A stretch of DNA of 64,000 bases. Origin: a virus. Taxonomy: Duplodnaviria > Caudoviricetes. Every line of letters starts with the position of its first letter. The stretch's first letter is position 1. The position numbers and the translations under genes are program-made. A model generated the notes under the pieces. The model saw only the letters and a program-made list of their open reading frames with translations. It had not been told where the DNA came from and searched no databases. Shown one piece after another: positions 27,284-55,235 of this stretch. The stretch is from positions 1 through 64,000 of the IMG/VR virus record IMGVR_UViG_3300036833_000307; one strand, written 5' to 3'.

Positions 27284-27301
27284 AGCAGATGGATCGGCCA
27301 T

Positions 27302-31325: not shown

Positions 31326-34300
31326 ATGCCTAGATCCCACCAATACCAACCGACCGACCCCGCAGACACCGTGACGGTTCTCGTCACTTGTCCCCACTCT
31401 GATGTCACCCTCGAGATGGTTATCAAAGGTCGGCTCGCCGTCCAGCCAGCCGCCGGAAGGACCAGCCGGGGCGGACCACTACACGCCGGCGGGGAACGGA
31501 TCGGTCAGTATTTCATCATTGAAGGCCCGCGCGTTTAGCGCGGGCTACCTTTCGTGCCGCACTCCGCAGCACGGCAGAGAGCGTCCCTGACTGGACGTAG
31601 AAAGATATAACCATGTCAGACCAATGGGATAGATTTGCTGGTCTCTTCCTGGCGCGTTTCCTGACAAGCCTGATACCGGCTTGTGTGATCGTACCCGTTA
31701 TCATCCCTATACTCCTTGCCGCCCTCGCTCTCGCAGCGATCTGGGTCGGAGGGGTTTATTACGGCGCACGCAACAAACCGGGCGCGGCCAAGCAAATACC
31801 ATCCAGCTAATCAAACGGCCTCAGTCCAAAACCTGAGGCTGCCTTTCGTGCAACAGCGTGTTGCACGGCAGAGAGCGCCCCTGACTGGGCGCGAAAGGAA
31901 GGCAAAACTCAATGAGTTTTACCATGCATGACGTTCCGCGACCGGTCTCCAGCGGCCTCTACAGCGCCGCCAGATCGATGATCAGCCCAGCGACACTTGG
32001 CGTCATGGCCAAGGGCTTCGCCGTCGCTGGCGCTGCCATCGCGATCACCGCCGGCTACCAGTTGGTGCAGGAGGAAGGTCGCAGCGTCATCAACAACATC
32101 CGCTCGACGCGGGCAGCGCGCAAGGCACGCAACGACACCGTGCTCTGCGCCCTGCTGGCCGAGGACGATTTTCCGCTCGACATCATCCAGTTTCTGGAGA
32201 CCAGGCGCGATGCATTTCGCGCCGCCATCCAGCTCTCATTGGACGAGAACGTGCCGAGCGAACAGCGTAGCAGGCTACGCGAGGCGTTGCGCAACCTGTA
32301 CCGCGCTTCGAACGGGTCCTGAAAGCCGGTTCCGGCCCTGTGGCATTTAGCAGGGCCGGTTGGGGCTAAAACACTGAAAAGCCAACGGTTTTTATTGCAA
32401 AAACCCTTGAAATATCGTTACGGAATCCCATATCCATGATATCTCATCACGGCAATATGCCAACGATGAGGGAGACAGTCGGCACTCCATCAACGCCGAC
32501 GAAATCAAGGAAAACCCCTAATGCTCTCACCCGAGAACGTTATGCCTGTCGTCTCCAACTTTGCCGAGACCCTCCGCGGCGCTGCCGCATGGGGGTTCGA
32601 ACAGGGTATCCGCGACATCGGCCGCGTCGCAACTATTGCGAGCGCCGTTGTCGTCGCCAGCGCTGCCTGTTACAGCATCGCCGGCACTGCCAAGTTCGTC
32701 GCGGCAAGGACCGAGACAACAACCAACTTCTTCCGCCGCACCTGGCGGGAGGCTGGCGAACGAAACGAAGTCAAGCACGAGTTTCAGGAGTTCCTGAAGA
32801 AGCGGAACGCTTCAAAGCAAAACTCCGACGCTCAGGCCGAACCGGTCGTCGCGTAGCAAAACGCCCCAGCCCTGATCAAACGGGGGTTGGGGCGTTTGCC
32901 ATTTTCTAGCGAACAAGAGAGATCACATGATCTTCTTCGCAACCGCGCTAGCCTTCCCATGGTGGGCCTGGATGCTCATCATCGGCTGTCTCATCGCAGA
33001 CCGCCTCATCGCTTAACCAAGCCACGCGCCGAAGTATCCGGCGCACATGTCCGAGCAGAAACGGCGCGTGGCTGCCCTATCGCCACACTCGTGGCGACTG
33101 ACGAGCCGGCAGCAACTTACCGGCGAAAGGGCATCATATGCTCTCAGTACCCTCGACTAAGAAGCGTCGTCGCAGCTGGGATCGTCGCGCAGCCTACATC
33201 AGGAAATACGGCCCGCTTGCTGGGCCGGTTATCCTGCGGCTGCTCGCGCTCCACGCCCGCGACCATCGCTGATTATCCCCTGGCCCCCTCGGGGGCCAGG
33301 ACCTCTCCCGCAGCATCCTGCGGGGCAGAGAGCGTCCCTGTTAGGACGTAGAAAGCACCCTCGATATGCGTACGCTCAAACGTACACTCAAACGTATTAT
33401 CATCGGCTTCCTATTGACCTTAGTGGTCTTGATCGGTGGTTTTGTAGGGCTCTTAGAATACTCCTACGAAAACACTCCGGTCATTGTTCAGCGAGCAGAC
33501 GAACCACGCGCCCGCACATGGGAACAACAACAAGCCGACCGAGAAGCTAAATGGGAGCAAAAACGCATCGACGATGCGTTATTTAACAGACAATCCAGCT
33601 CCACGACCTTCTGCAACACCGCAGGCTGCGTTACAAATTCCTTTGTACCAGGCCAAGGCTATACTAGTTGCACTACAACGAAGATCGAAGGAATTACTCA
33701 AACCGTCTGCGGGCCATCCCCGCTAAGATGACGAAAGGCCCCTGTTCTCCAGGGGCTTTTCTTTCCCGCCGCACATCGCGCGGGGCAGAGAGCTCGCCTG
33801 TAAGCCGAGCGCAAGGACACACATCCAATGACCGACACCAAGTTCGGTGGCGTCGAATACCGCGTCTCGATTGCCCTGCAAAGGCAGGGTGACGGCTACA
33901 CCGCCAAGGTAGCGATGATCGATCCCGGGTTCCCCGGACATAGAAACGACCATCTGCTGCCTGATCTGTACGGCACCCCACTGGAAGCCATCACGGCTGC
34001 CGGTGTCGAGGCCCGTTCGATGCTTAGCCGCCTGGTCGAGGACTTCGACCGTAAGGCGACACGGCAACACTGCGGTCACGATGACATTTACAACAACAAG
34101 CCCGCTTAGCGCGGGCGCCTTTCGGATCCATCGATCCGGCAGAGAACCCGGCTGTTCCGGGAGAAAGACCAAAACCAATGCGCTACGAGAAAGATAAACT
34201 GCGTGTATTCCAGCGCGAAGGTTATCTCGTCGTGCAAGCACCCAGCGGCAAAGAGGTTATGACGATCGACGTATGGGCGCTCGAGCGAGCCCCTCTGTTC

Positions 34301-34707
34301 TGCTTCAAACTGGTGGAAGCCGCCTTGAAGCAACACGCGGAAGAGCTAGTAAAGAGCCCGCCCATGCCACGCTTCGTCGAACCGGAGACGGAGGGGTAAT
34401 TCCCCTCTGCCTTTCGGATCACCTGATCCGGCAGAGAGCGACCCTGACTGGTCGCGAAAGAAACCACACAATGCCTAGCATCCTTAACACTCCGCCCGAA
34501 ACTCCGCTGGAGAAACTACGCCGGCTGCATCATCTGAAGGCCCGTTGCGTAGCCGGCGCTCGCAGCATCGACGATAACGTCGCAGGCCGTGCTGGCTGCA
34601 GCGTCGAAGAACTGACGAAATTGATGCACGACCAAGCCTTTCAGCAGCTTGTCGCCTACTACCGCAAGCAGTTCAAGCTCCAGCAAAACATACTCGACGG
34701 AGTGTGA
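31326..34707 (+). CDS. Cluster of small cassette-like genes (31326-31538, 31613-31810, 31912-32322, 32521-32856, 33366-33731, 33828-34109, 34178-34399, 34471-34707)
   Basis: Most are preceded by the repeated GGCAGAGAG leader and followed by a hairpin. Confidence 0.65.
31548..31604 (+). promoter_or_regulatory. Repeated structured leader (first of about 16 copies)
   Basis: CCTTTC-hairpin-GGCAGAGAG-hairpin with CTG loop-GAAAG, 4-15 nt upstream of ATG. Other copies near 31842, 33302, 33761, 34118, 34410, 35092, 35942, 36282, 46872, 47807, 48171, 48638, 48963, 49273, 54844. Confidence 0.85.
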
Positions 34708-34826
34708 CCACGAGCCAGGCTACCAGACACCAAGATTGACACCAAAAGCCCCTGTAACCCAGGGGCTTTTCGGCTTTTCTAGCCCAGAAAAATGCCCATA
34801 TATACAGCACATTGCGCTCGCAGACC

Positions 34827-35055
34827 TTGCGGCCGGTGAACCGTCGCCGCAAAGCCAGCCAAGCCTGCCGCGCCCAACCCGGCCCTGCCTGGCCGCGCCA
34901 TGTCCTGCCTGGCCTGCCGCCCCTGGCCCGGCCTAGCCCTGCCTGGCTGCGTCTCGCCATGCCGTGCCAAGTCCAGCCCTGCCTCGCCCGACCAAGCCAC
35001 GCCTGCCATGACCCGCCGTGCCTAGCCTGCCAGGGCCTGCCGCGCCTTGTCCCAG
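34827..35055 (-). ncRNA. Stand-alone GGC-NN mini-array (solo guide locus 2, about 3 units)
   Basis: Pentamer period on the minus strand; TTGACG(35081-86)-N18-TACGAT(35057-62) promoter; ends in a hairpin with the GACGGTTCACCG loop. Confidence 0.85.
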
Positions 35056-35155
35056 CATCGTATGCTCTATTTTACCGCGGCGTCAAATCAGCTCTCCCGC
35101 ACACCCTGCGGGGCAGAAAAGCGTCTCTGCGCTCAGACGCAGAAAGCATTCCATC

Positions 35156-35470
35156 ATGAACCAACGAACCATCAGCCTGCTGCTGGCACTCACCGCGGCA
35201 AGCTGCGCGTCTGACGCCTCGATCCAGCGGCTCGGCGCCCTACACAGCGCCTGCGCAACAGGCGATCAGCAAGCCTGCCAGCTAGTGCCGATCCAAGAGG
35301 AGACCAACCGGCAAGAGGCTAATGCCAACGCCGGCAAGGTCGCACTTGGTATTCTAACCGGTGCTCTGCTGATCGGCCTGTTTGCGTGGGCCGCTTCAAC
35401 CGAAAACGGCCACGAACATAGTTTCCATAACCATGGTGGCTTTGGCCACGGTGGCTTTGGTCATCGCTGA
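35156..35470 (+). CDS. Putative lipoprotein
   Basis: MNQRTISLLLALTAASC lipobox-like signal; second TM helix; His/Gly tail. Confidence 0.65.
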   Translation: MNQRTISLLLALTAASCASDASIQRLGALHSACATGDQQACQLVPIQEETNRQEANANAGKVALGILTGALLIGLFAWAASTENGHEHSFHNHGGFGHGGFGHR

Positions 35471-35504
35471 CCAGGCAGGGCCGCGCCGAACGCGGTCCCT
35501 GCTC

Positions 35505-35933
35505 TTACGCATGCCCACCCTCTGGATGGGTCACTGTCTTTGCCCTGACATCACCCCAGATTACCCGCAGTTGGCGCACCAGCTGCTCCAGCAAACCAGC
35601 ATCGCTGTAACGGTCGCTGCAATCACGACAGATCGGCACGAAGATGCCGGGTGCGGAGCGATCATCCGCCAGGATGATGAAGATCGTGTCCAGCGTGTCG
35701 AGGCTGATCCTGGTTTCGCAGCTCAAACACGTCGCGGTATCCGGCTCGGTCGCGACCTGGTGCACGAACAGCTGCACACCATAAGCGAGCCGCTCTGCTT
35801 CAGGATCGGACTGCGCGGCCTTAAGGACATTCAGCATTTCGCTCTGACGCACCAGATGCGCCGAGAAACACCCCCCGGATTTCGCATGAAACGTCTGCAG
35901 CCTATCGGCCCACTCCCCGGGTTCATTTGCCAT
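35505..35933 (-). CDS. Hypothetical zinc-binding protein
   Basis: CLSC...ICRDC; AAGGA RBS. Confidence 0.55.
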   Translation of the reverse strand: MANEPGEWADRLQTFHAKSGGCFSAHLVRQSEMLNVLKAAQSDPEAERLAYGVQLFVHQVATEPDTATCLSCETRISLDTLDTIFIILADDRSAPGIFVPICRDCSDRYSDAGLLEQLVRQLRVIWGDVRAKTVTHPEGGHA

Positions 35934-36004
35934 CGTCCATTCCTTTCGCATGCCATCGCATGCGGCAGAGAGCCTGGCTGTACCAGGTGAAAGACACAAC
36001 AACC

Positions 36005-36955
36005 ATGGAACTGATCAAGTTGTCATACGTGACTATGGGCGGCATGCCATCGCGGACCGGCAAGACCTGGATCTGGAGCGTCGAGGCTAACAAGGGCGGC
36101 CGATCCGTCGGCACCGTCTTGTGGTACGGCGGATGGAAAAAATACGTGTTCCGCCCCTCCGACATCAGCGCTCCGATATTCGAGGAGGTCTGCCTGCGCG
36201 AGATCGCGGACTTCATCGAAGCCCGCACCCGCGAATGGCGCGCCCAGCGCAAATGACCTGACCGGGCCTTCGGGCCTGGTCCCTTTCGCATGCCTCTGCA
36301 TGCGGCAGAGAGCCCATCTGTTCATGGGCTGAAAGGCACCATTCCAATGAATGACCTTGTTGCTGGCATTGTCGAAGGCTTAGAGCTCACCAAACCATTC
36401 TACGGTCAGCTGCCGGCGAAGACCCGGCCAATGACCAGCTTGTGGGCGGCACATGAAAAAGCTCTGCACGCCTTACGCATGCCACTGTATTATTCAAGGC
36501 TTGGCAAACCCAAGCCAAAACCCGCAGCGTACGACCAAGCCGTCCAAAGCGGCTTGGCAATCGCGGCGAGCTTTGCTCGCATAGCTGGCAGCCAACGCGT
36601 GATCATTCCGGTCCGCAACGGCATTGCCAGCAGCATCTCGATCCAGCCGCGCCCATGGCAACAAGCGAACTGGACCGCCGAACATGGCTTGTCATCCGGG
36701 CTCGTTGAGCCCTGCGATGATCCAATGACGGCAGACGATCCAAACCGGTTGCCACGCGTTTCAACATCGGATGTCATGCATCTGATGCGTAAGGTCGCGC
36801 TTGCGTTCGTCAGTGCACAGGACATCTGCTCCTTTCCCGGCACAGTAACCATCGAGTTCACCAACGATCGCGACCAGCCGAGCGCTCGGATGATCTTCAA
36901 GCCGTTCGACAGCGGCGATCACATGGTGCGGCGCGAGGCCCTACAGCCGTTGTAA
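36005..36955 (+). CDS. Two hypothetical genes (36005-36256, 36347-36955)
   Basis: Each preceded by the repeated leader. Confidence 0.65.
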
Positions 36956-37004
36956 TTTTGTTACAAACGCTCTTGATCACTACGGTTGGAATAACCATAT
37001 CTCA

Positions 37005-37445
37005 TCCGTAGCGATCAAGCGGTTAGCTTGCCCCCTAGTCGATCCCGTCAGTGTCGATTGAATGAGGCAGGCCGCCAGCTCCCGGCAGGGTTGGCGTCTT
37101 GATAGCTCTCAATCGTTCGATGCCACGACCATCGGCAGAACCTTGCCCTTGTGGTCCAAGGACTGATGCCAGTCACGTGGCGCCGGTGGATGGCTTTTGG
37201 CCCGTCCAATCGACCGGTTACCGATGTCGCATCATTTCCAGCGTAAAGCCATGCCTGTGCCTAGCGCAGGCGAAATTACCCCAACGATCCGCCCTTGGCC
37301 TGCGGATGGCTGCCAAGTCCAGGTCACCCTGGATGAGGTGGTGCGACAGAGGCTCTGCCAGCGCTCCCTTAAAAGTGGGGGCTAAAACAAAGGCAGGCAG
37401 ACGAAGCCCCGGTGTGACCAGCAAATCCCCTCACACCGGGGCCAG
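37005..37445 (+). ncRNA. Candidate large structured non-coding RNA
   Basis: Follows a promoter (36972-37000), no credible ORF, at least 8 consecutive hairpins. Confidence 0.4.
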
Positions 37446-37673
37446 AACCTCAAAATCAAACCTCACGAGCGCGGGCGATTTCCCCCGTCCGCGCTTCAGC
37501 GGCCAAGATGTTCTTCAGGCATTTGCCGGAATTAACCGGCCACTGTCTTGATCGGGTGGACAGTGCGGCCGCGCCGTATCATTCCAATACCCGAAACCCC
37601 ATGCCATGCGCGACTTGTCTGACCCCGCGCATGCATCCGGCAGGGCTTCCTGCTTCGTCCCTGCCGTCACTCC

Positions 37674-37725
37674 AACCCGCCGAAAGACCGTTCTTTACGA
37701 ACCCGGTCTTTCGGCGGGTTTTTTT
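37674..37725 (+). terminator. Rho-independent terminator
   Basis: aacccgccgaaagaccg...cggtctttcggcgggtt followed by a T run. Confidence 0.8.
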
Positions 37726-37942
37726 GCGTCCGGCGCCAGAAAAAACCCCGCGACTGGCATGGGCGCCGCGAGGTTTCAGGTACTTGTGTCATCCGCTTAG
37801 AGTGCCTTGCACCTGCTTGCCTTGTCCGGGCGCGTATCCAGTCCAGGGAGTTCGCGTCCGGCCACGACCGGCCTGAGCCATGCCGCCATAACAGGGGGAC
37901 ATCAGTCTACGGGCGGGTTCAGATCAGGGTCAACACAGACTG

Positions 37943-38039
37943 GACCCCGCAGCCGGCAAGCACCGAACCCGCGGGGTCGCCGTGCCTGCCCTGGCTTGCC
38001 GGGCCATGCCTCGCCGTGACACGCCAGGCCAGGCCTGCC
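37943..38039 (-). ncRNA. Stand-alone GGC-NN mini-array (solo guide 3)
   Basis: ggca + 9 pentamers + ggca ggcac, then a hairpin; TTGATC(38073-78)-N17-TACCTT(38050-55) promoter. Confidence 0.85.
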
Positions 38040-38074
38040 AGGTTACATCAAGGTAGACCGAGTTTGACTTGAGA

Positions 38075-38569
38075 TCAATGGAGAGCGTTATCACTCAAAA
38101 TCCGGCTCAGTGCACGCAGAGCCATCCTAAACATTGCCTTGCGTTCAGCCCCTCTCACCACACTTTCCCAGATCAGGGCATCGAACAGAACATTCCACGC
38201 ATCATGACCCAGCATGGTGCAAACACGCGCCAGCAAGTGGCGTGCACGCGCTTTCTCGGCTGAGGCGCTGATCGGCAACTCGGTTACAAGTTGGCTGTAG
38301 ACCAAACGTCCACGGACCTGAGCCAGATGAGCCATCTCGGCGAACCATTCACCTGCAGCGGCCAAGGCTGCGACGTCTTCACCAACATCACCGGCGGCAG
38401 CAATCTCCTCGAGCACGTTACGTGGCAGCACTCGCCCGCCGACTATGTCGCCCTTGGCAATCCGCTCCGCCGTCGCCCCTACAGGCGCTGGAGCGATGTA
38501 CTGGCCACTCCTCCGCTCCCACACCAACTCAATGGTGTTGCGGACAGCTCGACGCTTGTAGCCAGTCAT
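38075..38569 (-). CDS. Hypothetical protein, possible late-transcription regulator
   Basis: Helical C-terminus (VLFDALIWE...MFRMALRAL) resembling alphaproteobacterial phage Q-like proteins. Confidence 0.45.
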   Translation of the reverse strand: MTGYKRRAVRNTIELVWERRSGQYIAPAPVGATAERIAKGDIVGGRVLPRNVLEEIAAAGDVGEDVAALAAAGEWFAEMAHLAQVRGRLVYSQLVTELPISASAEKARARHLLARVCTMLGHDAWNVLFDALIWESVVRGAERKAMFRMALRALSRILSDNALH

Positions 38570-38637
38570 GGTTTAGGCTCCCGCCCAGATCGCCGAAAGC
38601 AACCCATTGTGCTAGACCGGCAGTCATGGATACCAGT

Positions 38638-39015
38638 ATGAGCGTTCAGCCGACCTTCAGCCACCGGATCGAGGCCTACGTCGACCGGGCGAACGTGCTG
38701 CTCGACGAGATCCGTCGAGCGGCAAACTACCTGCGCGGCAAGTACGGGTACACGCTGGCGATGTTGGAATCCGTTGCCAAGGTGCACAAAAACAGCTTGC
38801 TCAAGCTGGCCGACCCTGACTGGCGGCCGAAGATGGATACCCTGGTCCGCCTCGGAGCGCTGGTGGAGCGCGCGCAAGCGCATCGCCGCGGCGAGGTGTT
38901 CCGGTTTCCCGAGCGCCGCGGTCCCGGACGGCCACCCGGATCGAAGAACAGCAAATCGCGCCGTTCGCCGACCAAGGCGCGAAAAAATATGCCGAAAAGT
39001 ATTCCACCGCCATGA
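38638..39015 (+). CDS. HTH-like DNA-binding protein with GRPPGSKN (AT-hook-like) tail
   Basis: LESVAKVHKNSLLKLADPDWRPKMDTL. Confidence 0.6.
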   Translation: MSVQPTFSHRIEAYVDRANVLLDEIRRAANYLRGKYGYTLAMLESVAKVHKNSLLKLADPDWRPKMDTLVRLGALVERAQAHRRGEVFRFPERRGPGRPPGSKNSKSRRSPTKARKNMPKSIPPP

Positions 39016-39551
39016 CCGAGCCGGCCCAGACCAAGGTCCAGACCAAGGTCCAGACCAAGGTCCAGACCAAGCCCAACCAGCACGAGACCAGGCTGCAGAT
39101 CTACCTGGTCGAGTTGTTCATCAAGCACGTGAAGCGCGAAGACGCGGTGCTGGCGATGACCGGCAACGGCAGCTACCGCACGCCGGAAACCCTGCGGCTG
39201 ATCACCCGCATGGGCCTCGTCGAGGGTCTGCCGGACCTGGTGCTGATCCTGCCCGAGACCCGGCTGCACTGGATCGAGGTGAAGCTCGAGAAGACGCTGT
39301 GGCACAAACGCACCGACCTCACCGGAGCCCAGCCGGCAATGCATACGCTGCTGCGGACGATGGGTCACCGGGTGAGCACGGTGCGGAATGCCAAGGAGCT
39401 CTGGGCGATCATCGAGGCGGAGCGGATCCCCCACACACTGACCGAGTTTCCGCCCGAGCAGATGACCTTCGAGTACAGCCGGCGCCCGCTCAAACGGCGA
39501 CGCCGCACTTCACCCGAATCCGCTGCAGCACCGCCTCCTGCTTCTCCGTAG
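39012..39551 (+). CDS. VRR-NUC-like nuclease
   Basis: ETRLQ...MGLVEGLPDLVL...WIEVK...Q; N-terminal QTKV tandem repeat. Confidence 0.75.
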   Translation: MTEPAQTKVQTKVQTKVQTKPNQHETRLQIYLVELFIKHVKREDAVLAMTGNGSYRTPETLRLITRMGLVEGLPDLVLILPETRLHWIEVKLEKTLWHKRTDLTGAQPAMHTLLRTMGHRVSTVRNAKELWAIIEAERIPHTLTEFPPEQMTFEYSRRPLKRRRRTSPESAAAPPPASP

Positions 39552-42247
39552 GTGGCCGGAGCCGCTCGCCGATCGAAGTCTTCAGAAAGTCATGTTCCCA
39601 TTGGGACAATCGATTGCTGTATTCCTGCAGCAATGAATTGGCCTCGACTTGCCAAGGATATGGCTCTGGCGGTGGCGGTGGCGGCGGCGGACGCCTTGGC
39701 TGCGGCCTGGCCTGCTTAACTCCGGCGGCAAAGCCGCGCCGATAACCTTCCGCCAGCCCGCGCTGATAGCCTGCCGCCACCCCGCTCTGATAAGCCGCCA
39801 GCCCGCTCCGGTAATCCGCCTCATTGGGCTCTGCCGGCAGCAGGCCAAGCACATCGTTCCACTGCAGCTGGAGTTTCTGCACCAGGCGATTGGCCAGCCG
39901 CGCGGCATTGAGCGCTTCGCCGTCGTGGCCGCTGCCGATCATCCCGAGCAGCTGAGCAAGGCGCTTGCGATCCGGCCCTTCGATGCGCGCCACGGCCATT
40001 CAACGAGCGGCGACCTGCAGGCGCCACGTTGCCCATATCGCCGCTCTCGCCGTGGCTTCCCCGCTACGAACTTCCTCGTTCAAGTGATGAATTGCATCTC
40101 GCCCGGGAAGCCCATGGCAAGACATTGGGTCAACGATTGATCGAGCGCCCGGTCGAAGAAGCTGCGGCATTGTCGCACGGCGTCCGGCGAGCCAGTGCCG
40201 ATCACGGTGGAGGCGACGGTGAAGGCGAGCGCGTTGAGCGCTTCATAAATCCGGTCAGCGGAGCAGGGACCTTTGAGATAATTGCCACGGATCGCCTCCA
40301 GCATGATCAGGCTCAAGCTTTCTACCCGCTCTCGATCGAGTTCGTCCATCATCGTGTGCTCGGTTTATCTCGCGCCATCTTGTTGCGTCCAGTCGTGGCA
40401 CCGGCCGCAATAGCCTTCAGCGATGTCCTTCGGATGATAACTCGTCAGGCCGCAGCGCGGGCAGGTGATACTCGGCGGCGTATGCGCGGTTTTCCCACTC
40501 GAGGAACCACCGCAGCAATCGTCGAGTTCTTCCTGGGTCACTGGCGACGTGCGCCAACGGCCTGGCAGATCAAACAGGTCAGGCATCAGGATGGCTCGCT
40601 CGTACTGTGCTGCGATATCGGCGAATGGCGTCCGAAGCGCAGCAGCTGCAGCATCTCGGTGAGCAATTGCTGGGTTGCCGCAGGACCGCCTGCCGAGCTC
40701 AGGCAGTGCACTCGACCATCGCCGCCGGTGCGGAACATCAGGACGAACTCGCCGACATCATCGGGGAACGCATGCGCCAGCGTTTCGCCGATCACCTGGT
40801 AGTCCACATTCATCGCCGTTCCTCCTCGAGCGGGAGCAAGACGCCCTTCCGCCAGTGCCATTCGAACGCGGTGCGGTCGCCGGCGTCGAGGATCCAGATG
40901 CGTTCGATCCGGCCAACGCAGGCATCGATCGAGCGCAGCAGCCGGCGCACGGTATGGCTGGCGGTTGCCGCGTCGGTCCGGCCGGCGACCGCAAACGCGC
41001 TGCTGTCGAACAGCTGGGCGCAGACCTGGAACTGCCGGCTGTCGGCCTTCTGAGACGCCATCTCATCAGTCGGGATGGCCTTGGCTTGGCCTGGGAAGCC
41101 CGTAGGCGGCTTCCCGACTTCGCGGGCCTGCAGATACCCGAACAGCCGGTTCATGGCGCCAGCGACCGCCGGACGGCCAGCATCAGGCGGATCGCCCGGC
41201 GGGCAACTCGCGCAGCAACTCTACCATCATGCGCGCCGTCCCCATGGTCAGCTTACCGGCCTCGAGTTTGTCGACCACCGCCTGGGCCGCCCGTTCGGTC
41301 AGCGGCAGGGCGCAGCATGGGCAGAGACTGAGCGGTGGCCCGGCACCGTCATCGATGGCGAATCCGCCACCGGCCACCCGGCGGATGGTGAAGTTCATCG
41401 GCGTTCCCCTTTCCCCGAGCCGCAGAAATGGCAGCATTGCTGCCTTGATTTGGGATATCACCCTTCCGCAACCGGATCGGCCGGTCGGTCGAGAGCGTCA
41501 CCCAGCCGGTCGATAGCAGCGGTCATTCCCGCAATGGCGCGAGCGATGGCGAACAGTCCATCGGCCACGTTGGCGGAGACTGTATCGGTGCCGCGGGGAT
41601 CTTCGTAGGGGCTGACAAAGGCGTCGTCGATCGCCGTTGCGATGGTCTCGAGAGGGGTCACGAGAGCATCATCGGCCATGCTCGGGCACTCCGCTGCGGG
41701 TTTGGACGATGAGCGCTTCCATGTCGGCCCGATGGGTGCGGCAGGTCCAGCGGATTTGCGGCCAGGGTGTGAGCGGCGGGCCGAAGCCGAAGGGGGCGTA
41801 GGAGGCGCCGCAGAAGTGGCAGGGATGATCGCGCAGCGGTGGTGAGTATCTCTGGACAGTCACCGGCGGCCGCGGTGGAGGTCTCCGGGCCATATCACTC
41901 CCGCCAGTTCTTCTCTGGCGGCTTGCTTTCGTCTGCGGGATCTGAGCCAGTCATCAGTCGGCCTCCATTCTGCTCAGAGCGAGATCACGGCGTTCTCTGC
42001 ACACCTTGCGGCCGGGCGCCTTACAGGCTTGGCAACGGCGGGACGGCCATTTGCTGTCTGGAACGGTAAAGAGCTCAAAGGTGACACCGCAGGTCGGACA
42101 CTTGGTTTGCCAATAGACGACGAAGATCGTTTTACCACGACGGTTGACGTAATTGCCCAGCCGAACAAATCGATAGAGCTGTTTATCGAACTCAAAACTG
42201 CTGGGTTGCCGATGCTCCTCGGACAGAGGAATGCTTGGCTCAGCCAT
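39490..42247 (-). CDS. Leftward cluster of small hypothetical genes (39490-39999, 40080-40352, 40365-40586, 40586-~40813, 40810-41154, 41183-41461, 41458-41679, 41669-41893, 41954-42247)
   Basis: Coupled ORFs downstream of the helicase; several Cys-pair motifs; 39490-39999 carries LLGMIGSGHDGEALNAAR. Confidence 0.55.
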
Positions 42248-42419
42248 CTGCGCATCTCCTAATGCGTGAGGGTCAGGACCGGCCCGGAGGGTTTGCAGCC
42301 TCCGGGTTGGTCCGCTGATCCAACCCCTTCGGTCGACCAGCGTCAAGCATCCGAACCCCCCCCTCAAGCCCCGCGCGCGATTCGCGCGCGGGCGCGCGCG
42401 CGCCCCCCACTAAAGGGGG

Positions 42420-42612
42420 GGAGGACCAACGGACCAGCGGACCAAAAACGCCCCTTGGAGAGGCGTTTTGGTCCGGTTCTGGACCAGCAGAAGTTGTTGA
42501 TTTCATTGACATATTCGGACCGTAGCTTCAGCTTGCTTCATTGTTACGGTCCGGGACGGACCAGTTCGTTAACGGACCAGTCCAATGAAGCAAGGGACCA
42601 GCCCGGGACCGT
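42420..42612. repeat. GGACC iteron-like cluster, candidate replication origin
   Basis: About 11 direct/inverted GGACC copies in a non-coding gap immediately downstream of the helicase. Confidence 0.55.
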
Positions 42613-42618
42613 AATGGA

Positions 42619-43815: not shown

Positions 43816-44648
43816 GCGCCAGCCGCTTTCAACCCTGACTGGATGGTCCGGGCGCTGGCCTTGATGTCGGCGGCCGAGACGAAGCCAGCGTCGCGCGCGG
43901 CGTTGGCCAGCAGGGTTTCGGCCTCGAGGCGTCCTAGCTCACCCTCGACCACGCGTCGGCCGAGGCACCACGCCCCCCAGTTCAGCATGGCGTTGCGGTT
44001 GCCTTCCGGGGTTTCGGCGATCTTGCGCAGGATTGCGCCGATGCCGGCCTCGCTGTAGCGGCGCGGATCGCCGGTGACCTTGGGTCTGGGCGGTGGTGGC
44101 GCCGGTGGAGGAAACAGCGCCTTGCTCAGCCAGTCCGGCCAGGGGGCTGGCGGTGCGCTGTTGAGCATCGGCAGGCCGGCGGCAAACCAGAAGATGGCGA
44201 AACCGCCTTCGCCGCGAACGTCGACGCCACGCAGCGGGTCTGGTGGTGCGCCTGTGCGCTTGTTGCCATGGGTGATCGAGCCGACTTCGGCGGTCGCCAG
44301 GAAATGCAGATGGATGCCCCCCCGCCTGGTACGCAATACGGTGGTCGGCAGCAGCGAGCGGCCGAAGATGTGCCACCAGGCGCGTGCGGTGTCGTGCTCG
44401 ACGTCGAGGTCCAGCACGATGCGGTTGGAAACCTTGCCGGTGGCAACTCCGATCAGCGGTCCCGGCCAGTTGCGCCACAGCCAGCCAATTTCGTCGGGAT
44501 CCTTCGAGGCGTCCTTGAACCCGTGCTCGCCTTCCTCGCCTTTCGGGCATGGCCGGGTTGGTCGCTTGTCATCGCCGCACGGGAACACGGCAAAGCCGCA
44601 GTTACGCGCCAGCGCTTGGGCCATGGTGCAGATATCTTCGTGCTTCAT
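43812..44648 (-). CDS. Bifunctional DNA primase/polymerase (Prim-Pol) with PriCT-like domain
   Basis: VFPC..DKRP, HGFKDAS, IGVATG, VLDLD, TRRGGIHLHF, GVDVRGEGG, EGNRNAML. Confidence 0.9.
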   Translation of the reverse strand: MKHEDICTMAQALARNCGFAVFPCGDDKRPTRPCPKGEEGEHGFKDASKDPDEIGWLWRNWPGPLIGVATGKVSNRIVLDLDVEHDTARAWWHIFGRSLLPTTVLRTRRGGIHLHFLATAEVGSITHGNKRTGAPPDPLRGVDVRGEGGFAIFWFAAGLPMLNSAPPAPWPDWLSKALFPPPAPPPPRPKVTGDPRRYSEAGIGAILRKIAETPEGNRNAMLNWGAWCLGRRVVEGELGRLEAETLLANAARDAGFVSAADIKASARTIQSGLKAAGA

Positions 44649-45040
44649 GACGCCACCTCCTGGCCGGAGGCCTGCGGCGACGGCAACTGGGCTTGCAGCT
44701 CGCCCAGCAGATGCGGGCGGTCGCGGCGGATCGCCTCGATCACCGCCGCCGACCAGCGGCGGCGGATGTCCGGGGTCTCGAAGCTGATCAGGTCATTCGA
44801 CCACACTAGCTTGCCGCCGGCATCGCGCAGCGGCTCCGACGAGCCGTCACGCAGCCGGAGCCGTGCCGGTGGCGCCGCCCAGCAGGTGTTGCCATGGCGG
44901 TGGATGCCGATCTCGCCGATGACGAGGCCGGATGGAAACACCATCCGGGCGAAGCCGATCAGCGAGCCTTTGGTGAAGTCGCGGAAGTGGATGAGCCGCG
45001 CGCGGTTGCCGTTTGACGGACCATTGAGCGGGGCATTCAT
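44645..45040 (-). CDS. Hypothetical protein (possible ssDNA-binding fold)
   Basis: KGSLIGFARM.FPSGLVI...WAAPPA; coupled to the primase. Confidence 0.65.
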   Translation of the reverse strand: MNAPLNGPSNGNRARLIHFRDFTKGSLIGFARMVFPSGLVIGEIGIHRHGNTCWAAPPARLRLRDGSSEPLRDAGGKLVWSNDLISFETPDIRRRWSAAVIEAIRRDRPHLLGELQAQLPSPQASGQEVAS

Positions 45041-45651
45041 CCATGCGCCCCCCTGGCCCGCGTGTGCGGCACATCACAATGGACAATTTTCGCGGGTATC
45101 GGGGGAACGAAACCAGAAACAATGAAGGCTATCGTGCTGTGCATAAATTTCCCTCCCCCGTGACCGCACCATGACGGATCGATGATCCGCCGGTGAAAAT
45201 GCCGGTGTGGAGGGCTGGTCTGCCGCGGGAAAAGCCTTGCTGCCGGATTTTCCGTCGCCTATATATTTCCATGGCGACGGGAAACCGGCGTTGCACAGGG
45301 GCTGCTCAACAAACCCTGCTGCTGCTCCGCGGTGTGGCTTGCAAAACCTCACACCGGTAGTTTTCTCCCAAACCGAAGGCCGGGGGGCGGGCTACGCTTC
45401 CCGGCCTTCATCGTTCAGGAAGCTATGCAGCCTAGCGCCAAACCGCGCTGCACGGCAAACCGAATTTCCGTCATAGCTTAATAGGCTAGCTGCTTGATGC
45501 GTCAGGCAAAAATCGCCATATAACCTTGTGCCGGATAGTTATCCCCAGGCTTATCCCCCAGAAACATTGAGCAACACTGCCGTGAGTTCCTGAAACCCGC
45601 TCGGGTCTCCGGGCGGAATTCCCCGCCCGGGTAGACAAGGAACCACTCATC

Positions 45652-46697
45652 ATGGCCTCATTGTTCCAGGTTCATAAGAACTCTGGCGACATTGTCGCGG
45701 TCAGCGCCCGCACCATGCTGGGCATGCTGGCCGATCCCTATTCGGCCGCGCGCCTGATGCGCGAGCTGGCGTTCGATCGCGAGGTCGAGGTCGAGCTGCG
45801 CGACGGGCCGGCCAAGGTCAAATACGCTGACCCATTACCCAAACGGCAGCGCGAGCTGCCGATCATCCCCTACGATGCTCAGGTGAACCTCGTCTTCGTG
45901 CTGCCGGCGCTGGTGAAGTGCCGCGCCAGTTCGGAGATGGAGGCCAAGCACACCATCGAGGAAATCCTGCTGCGCGCCGGCCGCTGGCCGAGCGACGGCT
46001 TCGATCTCATTCTCCGGCCCGAGGACCTGAAGGCGTTCATTGAAAGTCTGGAGATCAAAAGCACTCTGGCGATCCAGGACGTCGAATTCCTCAACGTCTA
46101 TCCATGCAAGCAGCTGACCCACGAGCGGAGGACCTGACCATGCTGATGTCGGTATTCCGCCAGGGCCAGCCCACGCTGCAGATCGACCACCTGGTCGCCA
46201 TACGCGAGGCGGTCGATCCGGATCACGCCGGCATGGTGTTGCACGCCTGGACGCAGAACGCGACCGTATTGATCGGTCTGCGTTCCGGCGAGGCGATCAT
46301 CAAGCCTGCCGCCGACGGCGATGAGCAGCTCAGCTTCGAGGCGCTCTATGACACCTGCATTTCGCTTTCGCAGTGGAAGCAGATGAAGGCTCAGCGCGTC
46401 GTCAAACCTGAGGACCTCGCACCGCATCTCTACGAGCTCGATGTTCTGCTCGAACAGGCTCGTCCGGTGCGTGTGCGGCTGCGCATTAAAGCCAAAACAA
46501 CCACCGAAGTAAGTCAGCTTCTCAATCGCTTGGTCCGTGAAGACAAAGAATTTCAGGATAGCTTGATGGCGAAGCTTACCGAGGCGTTGTTGATACAGGA
46601 CGACGGCTCGATCATTTCTACTTCAGTACACAAGGTTGAGCACGTTGCGCCTGGAGATGCGCCGCTCTGGTCGTTCGTCCCAGAGGAACCTGGCTGA
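45652..46697 (+). CDS. Two hypothetical genes (45652-46137, 46140-46697)
   Basis: AAGGA / GGAGG RBS; downstream of promoter at 45493-45521. Confidence 0.65.
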
Positions 46698-46752
46698 TGG
46701 CTCGGAAACCGCGCTTGCATTTCCAGTCCATGCCGCTAGACTGCATTTTGTC

Positions 46753-46850
46753 GGCTCGACGCGGCATGGCGCGACTTGGCCAGTCCCGGCTCGGCTTGGC
46801 AGGCACGGAGAAGCAGGACCCAGAAGCACCATGCCGCTTCCGGGTCCTGC
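46753..46850 (+). ncRNA. Stand-alone GGC-NN mini-array (solo guide 4)
   Basis: 9 pentamers + ggca ggcac + hairpin; TTGCAT(46715-20)-N16-TAGACT(46737-42) promoter. Confidence 0.85.
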
Positions 46851-46938
46851 GCTCGGTTTTCCGCACAGTGTCTTTCGCACGCCATCCTGGTGTGCGGCAG
46901 AGAGCCCGCTGTTCAACGGGTAGAAAGACACCAAAAAT

Positions 46939-47760
46939 ATGTCTGATATCGTAAGGATGTTATCGAACCCGCTGGCAAAATCCGCATCCCAAACCGATTT
47001 CTTTCTCCTTACATTGGCGGAATGTGCAAAATTCGGCGTGCCGCCGCAGGCGCTTGCGCTGCTGCGCGATGTGCATAGCATGTTGGGATATTCCAAACCG
47101 CTCGGCGAAAAACAGATCAGCGCCCTGGCTGGGCCGTTGGTGGCGTGGCGCACCGATCCCCGGCAGCCGCATTTCGAGCGCGTTGTCGATCTCGAACGGC
47201 TGGCCTTTCACCAGCGCGCGCTGATCGCCTTTGGCGGCGGCAAACCTGGCGAAATGGTGGGCCGTGCCGAGATCGTATACGCGATGGGAAATCTGCTGCA
47301 CGGGACCTCGCCGCCGGAATACTACGAAGTATTCCAGTGGGCCTCCGTCGATACGCTCGCGGAGATCGAGGGAGACAGCAAGGCGAAAATCCTGGCCGAC
47401 CGTGAAAAGGACGGCTGGACAGCCGTCGCCGATGCGGAAGTAACCCAGCCCGGTGGGCGGCTCTACGCCACCTACCAGGAAATCTGCACGTCGATCCGCC
47501 GCGAGGCAATCGCCGGACTGGAGCGGAACCCGGCGGGGCATCCACGCAACATACTGCGGCCAATGGCCGCTCTGGCCATCGCCAACCATGCCCGGATCAA
47601 ACAGGAACTCCTCGCCGAGGGGCGTCCCGAAGTGGTGGAGACACTCGACCGCACGATCGAACAGATCCGCGGCATGTTTCCTGGTCTTGGCTCGTTGGAC
47701 GATGAGCTCAAGCGGCGCAACCAGGCCGCTCTCAACGAGGTCCTGGAAGAACTCCTGTGA
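46939..47760 (+). CDS. Hypothetical protein (273 aa)
   Basis: Preceded by the repeated leader; contains a near-match to solo guide 4. Confidence 0.75.
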   Translation: MSDIVRMLSNPLAKSASQTDFFLLTLAECAKFGVPPQALALLRDVHSMLGYSKPLGEKQISALAGPLVAWRTDPRQPHFERVVDLERLAFHQRALIAFGGGKPGEMVGRAEIVYAMGNLLHGTSPPEYYEVFQWASVDTLAEIEGDSKAKILADREKDGWTAVADAEVTQPGGRLYATYQEICTSIRREAIAGLERNPAGHPRNILRPMAALAIANHARIKQELLAEGRPEVVETLDRTIEQIRGMFPGLGSLDDELKRRNQAALNEVLEELL

Positions 47761-47869
47761 GCCTCGCGGATCCCGGTGCGCAAGCACCGGGTTCCGGTCC
47801 GCCATCCCTATCGCCGCACTCATTGTGCGGCGGCAGAGAGCCGGCTGATACCGGCGCAAGGGAGGCCTT

Positions 47870-49804
47870 ATGGCTAAACCAACGAAGTATCCACGCAGAC
47901 TGCGGCGAACCCTCGAGAAGGTCGCCGACGGCCGGCGGGAGCGGGAAGCCAAAGCGGCGGCGGAGGACGATGTTCCACCGCTGTTCCGATCGTTCTACCA
48001 GTCAGGATTTCTGACCCAGGTGCAGACGATCCATACCCGTTTCAACGACGCGGCAACGCAAGCGACAACCATCTATCAGTTGCATCCGTTGCCGGCGAAC
48101 CGGCGTATTTTCGTGCCGCCGCCGTGGATCCTAAAACCCAAAAGCGACGCGTCCTGAGAGGGGCGCGCTGCTTATCCCGCAGCTTCCTGCGGGGCAGTCG
48201 AGCCGACGCTGCTCAGTCGGCGAAAGGAAACCCCATGCGGAAAATCATGCGAATGATGCGCGACGCCTGGCGGGCTGGGCGGTTGCCCGAGCCATTCAAC
48301 GTACGCGCCTTTCGTACGGCCTGCCCAGGTCTCGCCGCCACGACCTACCCGACGTTCCTGGCGAAGCACGCTAAGGACAATCCGGGTGGTAACTCGACAC
48401 GGTTCAAGCGTGTTTCACGTGGCTGGTACCGTTTCTACGATCATGAATGATCGGGACCGCGCGCAGTGGGTCGACAACGACGAGGGCCTGTATCGCTGGT
48501 GGCGCCAACACCGCCAGAGCAAAGCCGCCTTCATTCGCGCTAACCGCGCCGAGATCGACGAGATCATCGGCAAGATCCAACGCGGCGAACATAAGCCGCA
48601 TTACCTAGCCTACCCGCCTACGCGCAAAGCGTAGGCGCCTTTCGCACGCAGCATGCGTTGCGGCAGAGAGCCGGTCTGCCAACCGGCGCAAGGAAACCCC
48701 ATATAATGGCCAGTCCATTCGACTATGACCTCGACCTCAACCTCGACGCAATGGCCGAGGAAGACCTCGAGGCCTGCGCGAACCATCTGACAACGATGGT
48801 CGATTATTGCTCGCACAAGCTCCTGGCAATGCGGCAACGCAAGATCGGTCGCATCCAGGATGCGCTCGACAACGAGCGCGCATGCGAGCTGATCTACCAG
48901 CGCATCCCCGCCAACTGGCGGTGGTGATCCGCGCAAAACCAACGCCTGCGCAACGCAGGCGTCTCTCGCTTGATTTCAAGCGGCAGAGAACCGGTCTGAT
49001 CACCGGCGAAAGAATAATGATGAGCAACGAACGCAGCGCCGAGGCGGAGGTCCGCAATCCGCTCCTCAGCCTGCCGGCGATGCAGAAAATTCGGGCACTT
49101 CCGGCGCCGGCGCGCCAGGCGCTCGCGGAACTCCTGGTGGAGCTCCACAGCGATGCCGAGCGTCGGGCGCAGGTCGCCTGGAACCGCAGCAAAGCACCGA
49201 TGGCGGCGTACTGGAAATCGGTCGCCGTCTATACGCTGCACATCCACCGGGCGCTGCGAAAATAGCGCCCGGCTTTCGTGCAACAGCCTGTTGCACGGCA
49301 GAGAGCCGGTCTGCTCACCGGCGAAAGACCCCATTCCATGACCAAACCCGACAAGTCGGCCACAGCGCGCGCGCTGGAGCGGTTTTTGCGGCATATGCTG
49401 GCCGGCAAACGGCCCGCCACGCTCAACGCCTGGCACAAGCTGGGTAATGAGTTGCAACTGGAGCCACTGCCACCAGCCGAGGAAGTCCTCGAGGTGCTGT
49501 CAGGCTTTTCACTGTCGCGCACCATGGCCGAAAAAACCGACTAATGCCGAACCTCGCGCTCTGCGGAGCCGAGGCTCCGGGCAATTCCGCCCGGGCAGAA
49601 GAGGCACGACAGATGAAGATCACCACCGATCTTTACACCGGGAAGCCGTTCCGCTGGAACACCACGGTTTTGCATCGGGCACCCGACGGCAAACTTACCA
49701 CCGTGCCCGCCCGCAGCACATCGCGTAGTAGTACCTGGCTGCATCCTTCACGGGTGCCGGCGGCACTGCTAGCCGAATTGAACCCGGACAAGACCAAACC
49801 CTGA
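47870..49804 (+). CDS. Cluster of small genes (47870-48157, 48235-48450, 48443-48634, 48706-48927, 49017-49265, 49338-49544, 49613-49804)
   Basis: Nearly all preceded by a repeated structured leader. Confidence 0.65.
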
Positions 49805-49877
49805 ACGTGCCGAACCTCGCGCCGGAAAGCGGCCGGGGTTCCGGGCAATCAAGCCCGGGCAGAAGAGGCACGATCAA

Positions 49878-50630: not shown

Positions 50631-51094
50631 CCAAACCCCCGAGGCTTCGCGCCTTGGGGGTTTTATTTTATTTTGCACTGTTGCGTGGGAGGGGTAAACC
50701 GGAGTAAGCTGGCTGATCCTGATAGGAAGTCGGCTGATGTCGTTCCTGTTGTCCCGCCCGGGTTATCCCCCAGCTTATTCGTCCTGGCCCATCGCCGCGA
50801 AAACCCGTCACACCAATATAGACTACGGGAGCACGGAGGTTGGCTATGCCCGAACCACGACGGCGGTCGGGGCGGATGACCATTCGCGAGGCGACGGTCG
50901 AGGTCGCGACTATGTTGCTCGGCACCGCCATCGGGTTGGTTATCGTCCTCGGCTTGGCTTACTGGTTAGGTCGCCACTTTCTCGTGGCCTTCCTGGGCGC
51001 CGTATCCGGACACTACTAGTCCGGGTACGGTGTTCCATCGTTTATGTGGTCTATGAAAATGTTTTGAGTTTAGTGGAAGATCGGCTAAGCTGTA

Positions 51095-51215
51095 GGCGCG
51101 GCTCGTCTAAGCCCGACATGGCAGGCTCGGCAAGACAAGGCACGGCGGGGCTCGGCATGGCCGGGCTTGGCAGGCGCGGCCTATGGACCCGGAGGAAACC
51201 TGCCTCCTCCGGGTC
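51095..51215 (+). ncRNA. Stand-alone GGC-NN mini-array (solo guide locus 5, 2 units)
   Basis: 5 + 9 pentamers separated by ggca, then a hairpin; TTGAGT(51064-69)-N16-TAAGCT(51086-91) promoter. Confidence 0.85.
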
Positions 51216-51253
51216 TTCGCTTGTACCCTTCGCTTCGATCGGAGGTTTGAGCA

Positions 51254-52057: not shown

Positions 52058-52072
52058 GGAGAGGAACAAGCT

Positions 52073-52672: not shown

Positions 52673-52696
52673 TCTCCCTGCCGCAACAACATAGCC

Positions 52697-53167: not shown

Positions 53168-55235
53168 CGCCGAACGGCTGGCCCAGGCGGTGCTGCTGTT
53201 CCATCGCGGCGGCCCGTGGACGGCCTTAGACAGCGGCCACTGGCTGGCGCTGACCGGCAAGGTGGACTGCACCACCAAGGTGCTCTGCGACCTTGCCCGC
53301 CGCATCCTCGAGACCGCCGAGCGTGAGGTAGTGATCCAGCTACCGTTGGAGCCATTGAGCGATGCGGACATCCGGCAGGCCGCGCTAGGCCCCCTGGAAT
53401 GGAAGCAGCGCTGATGCCGCGCTGGTCTGAGGTCGTCACCATCACCCTGCCGGACGGCACACAGGCTCAAGCCATCGTCTGTGGCAGCGGCAAGCGTCCG
53501 CGTACGCCGCGCTGCCGCTGCGGCCGGACGTCGAGCATCCAGTGCGACTTTCCGCTGCTGGATGGCAAGACCTGCGACCAACACCTGTGTCGCTCCTGCG
53601 CCGTCCCGGTCGGGCGCAACCGCGACTACTGCCCCGAGCATCCACGGTGAGTACCACCCGCCGCACCCCTCGTTACGAGGACGTCCAGCCGGTCAAGGAC
53701 CTCGTCACCAACGAGGAGATGTACGAGGCGATGGTCTACATGGACCAGAGCCCGCACGACTATGCCGAGGCGGTCGCTGACGCTGAGTACGCCGCGTACA
53801 AAATCCGCATGGCCGAGGCAGTCGGCATCCTCGTGTCGGGCGAACGGAACGCCGCCCGCCAACAAGCTGATGCCCGCACCTCGCAAGCCTATGCCAACGC
53901 CGTTGAGGACAACCGCCGCGCGCAGATGCAAGCCGAGATGATGAAAGCCAGGCGCGCCGCTGCACAGTTGAAAATCGAGGTATGGCGAACCCTTCGCGCC
54001 GACCAACGCGCCCGGGATGTGTCCGAACCAGGAAGTAGATGATGACGCGTGCGAAAAGGGCTCTCCAGCCTAAGCCGAAGAGCCCCGTGCCGCGTCCGGC
54101 GTTGCCACGTCCTGCCAAGCCTCGTCTCGCCGCAGCATGTCATGCCTGGCCGTGTGTGGCATAGGCACATCACGATATGCCACATTTTTTATCCTTGGCA
54201 ACGGTTCGCTGATGCCCTGCCGCGACTGTAATCACTGGAACCGGGTTCCGGTCTGCGCTGCCCTCGAGCGCTTTACCCCCGGCTGGTGTGAAGTCCAGCA
54301 CCGTGCGGTATTCCCGCACTATCACTGCCCCAGGTGGGTACAACGCGAGGTCACCCACGCCGAGGTCGGCCTCACCCGCGACGAAGTCGCCTGGGCGCGC
54401 CAGCATCGTGACGACCCATCGGTTCGCGCCCTCAACTTCCTGTTCCGCCGCATCCAGTTCCAGCCGCAGAACCCCGCGATCCGCGCGGAATTCACCACGA
54501 CGCTGGAAATCTGGCGCAGCAAGCGACGTATCGCATTCGGTCAACCGGAGGAAATGCCATGAGCGGGACCGGCTTCCCCGAAGGTTTCGCTATCGTTCAT
54601 GCCGGACAACTCTACCGACCGATTGGCACCCGGGAATTCGTCAACACCAAGGGTCAGCGGGTGATGTGCATCGACTGGCGTTCGGTCTGTCCGGAGTGCG
54701 GTGAGGCTTTCACCCTCACCACCGGCCGGCGCTGGCAGCGCCCGCACGCACGCCGTTGTCCGGGTTGTCGAGCGCCGGGCCAAGCGGTGCAAGATGCTCG
54801 TATCGGGCAGCGATAGACCCTATATAATAAGCCGCAACGATCTGCCTCCCGGCCCGAGCATCGGTGACCGGCAGTGAACCCGGCTGCTCCCGGGGGAAAG
54901 GCATATCAATGTCAGAACCAGTATCCCGCATCCAGATCCTCGCTCCTGAGCGGCTGGATGCCTTCTTCGCACACTATCATTCCGGCGCGGACTACGGGCT
55001 GTTTCGCCAGGGTCTCGCCCGGCTGCTGGAGCTCTGCTCCCGCTATTGCTCAAATCTTCCTGCTGGCGCGTACCGCGTCGCCAGCCTCATGCCTGACCAC
55101 CGCGATTTCCAATCAATCGACTGGTGCATTCAGGAAAATCCGGAGCCATCCGGATTCCACGGCAAGCACATCATCAATGGTGGCTTAAACCACCACAGCG
55201 ATGTTTCCACTCCAACGTGGAGCATCAACACTTAG
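53154..55235 (+). CDS. Small hypothetical genes (53154-53414, 53414-53650, 53647-54042, 54212-54562, 54559-54816, 54909-55235)
   Basis: Coupled ORFs, several Cys-rich. Confidence 0.6.
54058..54151 (-). ncRNA. Stand-alone GGC-NN mini-array (solo guide 6)
   Basis: 13 pentamers on the minus strand then hairpin + T4; TTGCCA(54196-201)-N18-TATCGT(54172-77). Confidence 0.8.

Follow-up and report, generated by a model that had tools for sequence, protein, structure and literature searches.

Hammerhead ribozymes occur in clusters that flank single genes in prophages, and in haloviruses a variant precedes an early-gene start codon by 13 nt and has a cleavage site that agrees with the mapped 5' end of the mRNA (Perreault et al. 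2011, PMC3088659). A second arrangement of this kind is the PeSL cassette of T4-type phages, in which a sigma-70 early promoter and a stem-loop together form a repeated composite motif of ~50-70 nt before small ORFan early genes, a candidate vehicle for shuffling (PMC2839356, PMC4122927). The element described here is an RNA leader of ~65 nt, with three helices plus a pseudoknot, found in the first 64 kb (the window) of a 102,563-bp IMG/VR record of an uncultured soil phage (G000). Like the clustered phage hammerheads, it is a small three-way junction repeated between small phage genes of varying identity (PMC3088659). We favour, with a probability of about 45%, the reading that these leaders are hammerhead-derived elements which would punctuate early transcripts by processing.

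An earlier note on this DNA had proposed a single shared element ahead of many small phage genes, in about 16 copies between 31548 and 54901, and this was borne out: a covariance model of the two hairpins (model R1; model R2 also includes the closing helix, P1) finds 17 copies in the window from 31545 to 54901, on the plus strand only, even with filters off. Each of the 17 is followed by an ATG at 35-45 nt past the core and then by an open reading frame (ORF) of 44-273 aa, with the element ending 5-15 nt before the start codon. The E-values of 14 copies run from 1e-26 to 4e-9, and three copies are weaker (48168, 35088 and 33073). The 9-mer GGCAGAGAG has 11 exact plus-strand occurrences (31573-49297) against ~0.5 expected in 128 kb by hand arithmetic (the shuffle figure for it allows up to 1 mismatch and is uninformative), and a descriptor scan added two degenerate copies beyond the exact matches. 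With ~75 further copies outside the window, on three related IMG/VR phages, ~20 soil metagenome contigs and two contigs of metagenome-assembled genomes (MAGs), there are ~90 copies in all.

From 5' to 3' the leader is composed, often after an upstream GC hairpin (P0), of (G)CCUU as the 5' strand of P1, one U, C or A base, hairpin P2, the junction CAGAGA (J2/3), hairpin P3, GA (GC in a few copies), AAGG(C), and an A/C-rich spacer that leads to the ATG. P2 has 7-10 bp, a foot of U-G and C-G pairs and a variable loop; P3 has 5-6 bp, a foot of G-C and C-G pairs and a loop that begins CUG; AAGG(C) represents the 3' strand of P1 and the Shine-Dalgarno (SD) bases at once. In the top-scoring copy, taken as the exemplar (copy 2, 31839-31911, plus strand, ATG 31912, 136 aa), the 5' strand of P1 is at 31842-31845, P2 at 31846-31868, J2/3 at 31869-31874, P3 at 31875-31892 with its loop CUG at 31881-31883, GA at 31893-31894 and the 3' strand of P1, with the SD, at 31895-31898. 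P1 is 5 bp in most copies (range 3-7 bp, with 9 bp at 46868), and it reaches into the non-conserved flanks in many of them.

All three helices covary, as expected from the three-way junction that had been proposed. P2 and P3, whose stems had been said to vary while staying paired, are paired in 95.8% of cells over 48 copies, with 213 double-change cells against 70 when shuffled, and with ~40% paired in slid controls. In the alignment of model R2 (92 copies, 88 distinct), 90.8% of cells are paired vs 37-48% with partners slid, double-change cells number 384 vs 116 in shuffles, and double changes are present at 19 of the 22 pairs. P1 has compensatory changes at two pairs, and pairing between the flanks is better with the cognate partner (5.03) than with swapped ones (4.38+-0.07; 0 of 2000 permutations). 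The earlier note had correctly seen that the 5' pyrimidine block pairs with the ribosome-binding region, while its helix of CTTTC with GAAAG has to be replaced: since CTTTC gives its last two bases to the GG of GGCAG, forming the U-G and C-G foot of P2, the closing helix is (G)CCUU with AAGG(C). Thermodynamically P1 is weak, with a mean pair probability of 0.25, and it is predicted to form in 22 of the 88 copies without extra stabilisation.

The pairing of the junction CAG with the loop CTG, which had also been suggested, is supported by compensatory swaps. Junction bases 1-3 pair with P3 loop bases 1-3, as CAG with CUG in 71 of 90 distinct copies, and changed junction triplets keep the pairing (UAG:CUA, CUG:CAG, CGG:CCG, CGG:CUG with a G-U pair, and CGG:ACG in part), with one exception, UAG with UCA. 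In the formal count (alignment A8), 95.1% of the cells are paired, and there are two double-change pairs vs 0.1 in shuffles. By its strand order the pseudoknot is of the H type, and it could form one stack with P2 and P3.

The leader is an RNA element and not a promoter, because G-U pairs outnumber A-C mismatches by 60 to 11 and because the spacing between the two conserved blocks varies by 5 nt (19-24 nt). It is always on the strand of its gene and ends at the ribosome site, the start codon being 12-17 nt past the end of P3 in 77 of 89 distinct copies (range 9-19; four copies have no ATG in the 30 nt read). A promoter scan found no sigma-70-like plus-strand site at any copy, and a good sigma-70-like promoter exists elsewhere in the phage (46716-46745). 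Readings as sigma-54 or sigma-70 promoters were rejected, as the -12 GC is unconserved by eye, the spacing varies and there is no plus-strand site.

The copies had been described as following a terminator-like hairpin of the previous gene, and the hairpin itself is confirmed: P0 is enriched upstream (free energy dG <= -15 in 65% of copies vs 17% of random windows) and abuts P1 in about two thirds of copies. The likeness to a terminator does not extend to a U tract, since only 2-3 T fall within the 8 nt after P0 (e.g., 31818-31839, plus strand), so that it is not a canonical terminator; true terminators with U tracts end gene blocks at 34744-34770 and 50633-50663. Between the upstream stop codon and the leader there are 1-63 nt, and an upstream ORF is absent at three copies. 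The loop of P0 contains the upstream gene's stop, often TAG, in several cases (e.g., 34098-34114 and 31520-31544).

The topology of the leader is that of a type III hammerhead, open at stem III (P1) and with hairpins on stem I (P2) and stem II (P3), and the strand order is shared as well: stem III, an unpaired base, stem I, a purine-rich core, stem II, GAA and stem III again. At 11 of 13 core positions the two agree. In 87 of 88 copies the counterpart of A15.1-U16.1 is a U-A pair, the base at position 17 is U in 73, C in 10, A in 5 and G in none, G10.1-C11.1 is G-C in about 71-73 of 88 copies and G-U in 6, and of the GAA bases after P3 the G is present in all 88 copies, the first A in 83 (with C in the other 5) and the second A in 87. 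Part of the agreement at A15.1-U16.1, position 17 and G10.1-C11.1 could reflect the SD constraint on AAGG. The core CAGAGA, read in 80 of the 90 distinct copies, is CUGANGA with A in place of U4 and without N7; these two changes touch the same corner of the core, because U4 contacts the phosphate between A6 and N7 (PMC3088659). Only copy 3 (33073-33137, plus strand, ATG 33138, 44 aa) reads CUGACGA, in agreement with every core sequence rule, and it has a 6-bp stem III closed by A-U, an A at position 17 and a P3 loop that begins CAG, so that the loop has switched and the pseudoknot is kept. In two copies the core is UAGAAA, where both the C3 and the G8 equivalents are changed, perhaps in a single event; the same C also covaries with the P3 loop. 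For natural hammerheads, U3-A8 covariation is reported (PMC3088659). Most core bases, the A-U closing stem III, a position 17 other than G and, in one copy, a canonical core are shared with phage hammerheads, as may be the U3-A8 covariation (PMC3088659). Another precedent is HHphage of HF1/HF2, where the hammerhead has an atypical core and is placed ~13 nt ahead of the start of an early gene; it differs from the leader in having insertions next to C3, in being a single copy, in belonging to an archaeal brine virus and in that no core pseudoknot is described for it (PMC3088659).

Several observations speak against a hammerhead origin and have to be weighed together. At position 4 all but one of the copies have A (or G), N7 is missing, and mutational work treats U4 as essential (PMC3088659); the A13 equivalent is C in 5 of 88 copies. 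The active fold known for hammerheads leaves no way to form the pseudoknot, which pairs the equivalents of C3, U4 and G5, but compensatory changes maintain it nonetheless. In both P2 and P3 the second base pair never varies, a constraint that is not needed in hammerheads. The leader also departs from phage hammerheads (PMC3088659) in its CAGAGA core and in a stem II loop that pairs with the core instead of stem I, and the tertiary contact of stems I and II is absent: the P2 loop is unconserved, and the P3 loop pairs with the junction instead. The Rfam hammerhead models score no copy, even at E <= 10 on a 311-nt slice (33.06-33.37 kb), and a search with RF00008 over three genomes gave no match. 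A wider Rfam search, at gathering score over the whole window plus 140 kb of relatives and at E <= 10 over 31.4-36.5 kb, returned nothing relevant; the check that had been proposed thus places the leader family outside Rfam 15. The accompanying statement that the leader does not match the hammerhead no longer stands, as the leader shares its fold and 11 of 13 core positions with type III and the core of the copy at 33073 is canonical.

RNase III sites, such as those of the T7 early/late mRNAs and the lambda N leader, are long irregular duplexes of ~20 bp; once cut, they leave the 3' end protected by a hairpin and can expose the ribosome site that follows. The leader resembles them as an intercistronic structure and differs in its helices, which are 5-10 bp around a junction. 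In the processing that we propose, the leaders would be transcribed as a cis-acting part of the early mRNAs, with the SD bases held in a stem III (P1) of ~5 bp. The polycistronic early transcript would be cut at the junction of stem III and stem I, after the equivalent of position 17, in a reaction catalysed by the RNA or by a fold-specific nuclease. This would leave P0 at the end of the upstream mRNA and the base-paired P2 hairpin at the start of the downstream mRNA, and the short anti-SD strand would drop off with the upstream mRNA and so free the ribosome site. We infer cleavage, the position of the cut and the effect on translation from the layout, and the layout fits because P0 abuts P1, P2 is placed at the presumed new 5' end, P1 is weak and the distance to the upstream stop varies from 1 to 63 nt; with a mean pair probability of 0.25, P1 is therefore better suited to product release than to stable repression. 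Since clusters that flank single genes and a variant before an early-gene start codon are the layout reported in PMC3088659, we count this likeness in favour of processing, and we count the canonical copy at 33073, the UAGAAA copies and the possible type II permutations described below in favour of a hammerhead-derived element.

The 85 distinct proteins led by a leader fall into 14 small families and 36 singletons, i.e., ~50 unrelated ORFan families, and a Pfam domain (KilA-N) was found in just 2 of the 85. They do not share one pathway or transport function, as the genes of a metabolite riboswitch would, and the proposal of a riboswitch-like element has accordingly lost ground: 17 copies ahead of unrelated ORFans make a classical metabolite riboswitch unlikely. 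Orthologous genes retain the leader while its stems change by compensatory mutation, and therefore selection acts on the fold itself.

Among the alternatives the one that survives best, although we consider it doubtful, is a non-catalytic translational operator, in which the junction and the pseudoknot would hold the SD in P1 while a protein, a small ligand or an ion gates the set of early genes. The SD bases do lie within the covarying P1, and CAGAGA, the loop CUG and the two foot pairs of each hairpin are conserved far beyond the needs of a plain SD-masking hairpin; the pseudoknot, incompatible with hammerhead catalysis, and the presence of 17 copies per genome on unrelated early ORFans also argue for a common regulator. 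T4 RegA is a precedent in that it switches early-gene sets, through a different recognition element. The SD-sequestering pseudoknots (preQ1-II, SAM-II and the S15 and S4 mRNA operators) occur once per regulated operon, with specific gene functions; the leader has the same compact pseudoknot fold with ribosome-site bases in a helix, but in 17 copies and before unrelated genes. As an operator, however, the leader would depend on a P1 of 3-7 bp that is predicted to form in only a quarter of the copies without extra stabilisation, and Pfam and PHROGs scans of ~45 phage proteins recognised no RNA polymerase, RNA ligase or RNA-binding protein. Nor does simple translational coupling apply throughout, given stop-to-leader distances of 1-63 nt and the three copies that lack an upstream ORF, and the near-identity to the hammerhead core, the canonical copy and the permuted forms would be left unexplained.

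Two further histories would combine catalysis with regulation, and we regard them, taken together, as unlikely. In the first, a two-state ribozyme would cut and then refold, so that P2, the pseudoknot and P3 lock the product, cap its 5' end and open the ribosome site; in the second, catalysis would be lost and the scaffold re-used as a global translational operator of early genes. In the two-state case the junction C would alternate between the core G and the loop G as its partner, and one copy (L094:5638) has both partners changed together.

An improbable, though not far-fetched, alternative is a passive modular cassette comparable to the PeSLs (PMC2839356, PMC4122927), i.e., a self-folding insulator or stabiliser of 5' or 3' ends that would provide a uniform ribosome-site context and homology for shuffling. 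It would account for one leader heading 14 small families and 36 singletons, and also for the region at 33.0-35.0 kb, in which this phage and the syntenic phage G002 (DNA identity 65-78%) carry different ORFans, each with its own leader copy. The PeSLs are built of a sigma-70 early promoter and a stem-loop (PMC2839356, PMC4122927), whereas no promoter is found in the leader, which conserves the features of an RNA fold. Neither homology nor insulation calls for near-invariant junction bases or a covarying pseudoknot, the compensatory stem changes in orthologs indicate selection on the fold, and in a rough count the ends of homology blocks between G000 and G002 are not clustered at the copies beyond expectation. 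The idea of a recombination joint for shuffling gene cassettes, although the leader does head ~50 unrelated families, is weakened by this count.

Finally, a DNA-level signal, such as a phage-specific or N4-type hairpin promoter combined with the terminator of the previous gene, is very improbable: the copies do follow hairpins, have no sigma-70-type promoter nearby on the plus strand and in one case (35939) abut the start of a divergent gene with no room for a separate promoter, but the block spacing of 19-24 nt and the excess of G-U pairs over A-C mismatches (60 vs 11) speak for RNA, P1 and the pseudoknot covary with the ribosome-site bases included, the protein scans revealed no phage RNA polymerase, the phage has a sigma-70-like promoter at another site (46716-46745) and the hairpins lack U tracts. 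Three other candidates were rejected: a mimic of a CRISPR/Cas6 repeat, as the stem sequences vary; a tRNA-like RNase P substrate, as the P3 loop does not resemble a T-loop and P1 is not followed by a fixed NCCA; and a link to the GGC-NN arrays of this phage, as neither model matches the pentamer array at 27.3-28.5 kb. The common processing with guide separators that the earlier note had drawn from a shared GGCAG is likewise not supported, the GG being paired in P2.

As regards the remaining copies, listed with spans up to the base before the ATG and all on the plus strand, those in the first part of the cluster are copy 1 at 31545-31612 (J2/3 CAGAGA, P3 loop CUGACU; ATG 31613, 65 aa), copy 4 at 33299-33365 (ATG 33366, 121 aa), copy 5 at 33757-33827 (GCAAGG form; ATG 33828, 93 aa), copy 6 at 34115-34177 (ATG 34178, 73 aa), copy 7 at 34407-34470 (ATG 34471, 78 aa), copy 8 at 35088-35155 (degenerate, J2/3 CAGAAAA; ATG 35156, 104 aa), copy 9 at 35939-36004 (ATG 36005, 83 aa) and copy 10 at 36279-36346 (ATG 36347, 202 aa). 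They are followed by copy 11 at 46868-46938 (9-bp P1; ATG 46939, 273 aa), copy 12 at 47804-47869 (GCAAGG form; ATG 47870, 95 aa), copy 13 at 48168-48234 (weak, J2/3 CAGUCGA; ATG 48235, 71 aa), copy 14 at 48635-48705 (GCAAGG form; ATG 48706, 73 aa), copy 15 at 48959-49016 (ATG 49017, 82 aa), copy 16 at 49269-49337 (ATG 49338, 68 aa) and copy 17 at 54842-54908 (J2/3 CAGUGA; ATG 54909, 108 aa). One more, weak model match, at 16593-16662 on the minus strand, was judged to be a chance match, being inside a coding region and having a poor P2.

Two of these copies have particular surroundings. The minus-strand ORF at 35505-35933 has coding-like GC by codon position and its start codon is 6 nt from copy 9, and therefore the plus-strand transcript must begin within the antisense strand of that gene. 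On the 5' side of copy 11 there is a promoter (TTGCAT-16 nt-TAGACT), a pentamer tract (GGC-NN) and a hairpin with a TTTT tail (46715-46860), and the gene of copy 11 may be expressed by read-through from this upstream small-RNA unit.

Three other elements on the plus strand can be drawn as type II permutations of the hammerhead, with 7-nt cores that depart from the consensus at position 4 alone, and are given here as leads, as the descriptor that returns them also returns chance hits. The first, at 45586-45651 (ATG 45652), is a possible type II-like relative found by descriptor only, and it has a 5-bp outer helix, GAA, a hairpin, a C, a hairpin with a U-G/C-G base and a 7-nt core, UAGACAA. The second possible relative, at 49545-49612 (ATG 49613), has the core CAGAAGA, in which U4 to A is the sole change; it has an ortholog in G002 at about L093:6715(-), and there are two metagenome examples of the permuted form. 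The third, at 49806-49877 (ATG 49878, a DNA methylase gene), is a paralog of the second.

The phage record has direct terminal repeats and a GC content of ~62%. Its minus strand codes for the terminase, the portal, a Mu-F-like protein, the tape measure protein and a tail protein of the gene transfer agent (GTA) type, while small plus-strand genes fill 31-60 kb together with a methylase, ERF and single-strand binding protein (SSB). By terminase, the nearest cultured relatives are Rhizobium phages at only 37% identity, and megablast and blastn against cultured phages found no relatives of the leader region or of a single copy. A strict pattern scan of IMG/VR found the leader in another two phage contigs, G001 (91.5 kb) and G002 (104.6 kb), all the remaining matches being single chance matches, and a second pattern led to a fourth phage that carries it (G003) and to ~20 contigs from soil, peat and rhizosphere metagenomes. 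Copies on two Alphaproteobacteria MAG contigs of 46 kb and 169 kb (L136 and L144; CAWCDM010000008.1 and CAWABH010000041.1) are a hint, from sequence, at the host group or at prophage forms. In the phage contigs L095-L099, whose helicase is 62-65% identical, neither the leader nor a similar two-hairpin leader was found.

A few other features of the phage were also recorded. At 25908-28543 there is a two-gene unit and, after it, ~1.2 kb in which GGC and two free bases recur with a strict period of 5 nt, solo units of promoter, pentamer and hairpin are dispersed in the genome (e.g., 46715-46860), and G002 has a homologous array; Pfam gave nothing on the two proteins of the unit. VIPR systems consist of a Vipr RAMP protein and vrRNAs of alternating GGY/NN motifs (bioRxiv 10.64898/2026.04.26.720920), and judging by sequence the array and the solo units fit this description. 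Large proteins with no Pfam or PHROGs match are encoded on the minus strand at 96847-101601 of the record (1584 aa) and at 10271-13108 of the window (945 aa), and a perfect 12-nt tandem repeat of 3.8 copies lies within an ORF at 39026-39071.

Since 2011 it has been asked what the many hammerheads between phage genes do, and the leaders offer a dense natural test series for this question: 17 copies in one genome and ~90 in all, with one canonical core, most with an altered core and a clashing pseudoknot, and some possibly permuted. If the altered core cleaves, the natural sequence space of the hammerhead would gain A at position 4 and the loss of N7, and cleavage would be tied directly to the unmasking of a ribosome site; if it does not, a ribozyme scaffold would have been re-used as a regulator. 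Either way, the leaders are an unannotated RNA family that should be entered in the libraries of such families, and they offer a compact natural part with which cistrons could be insulated.

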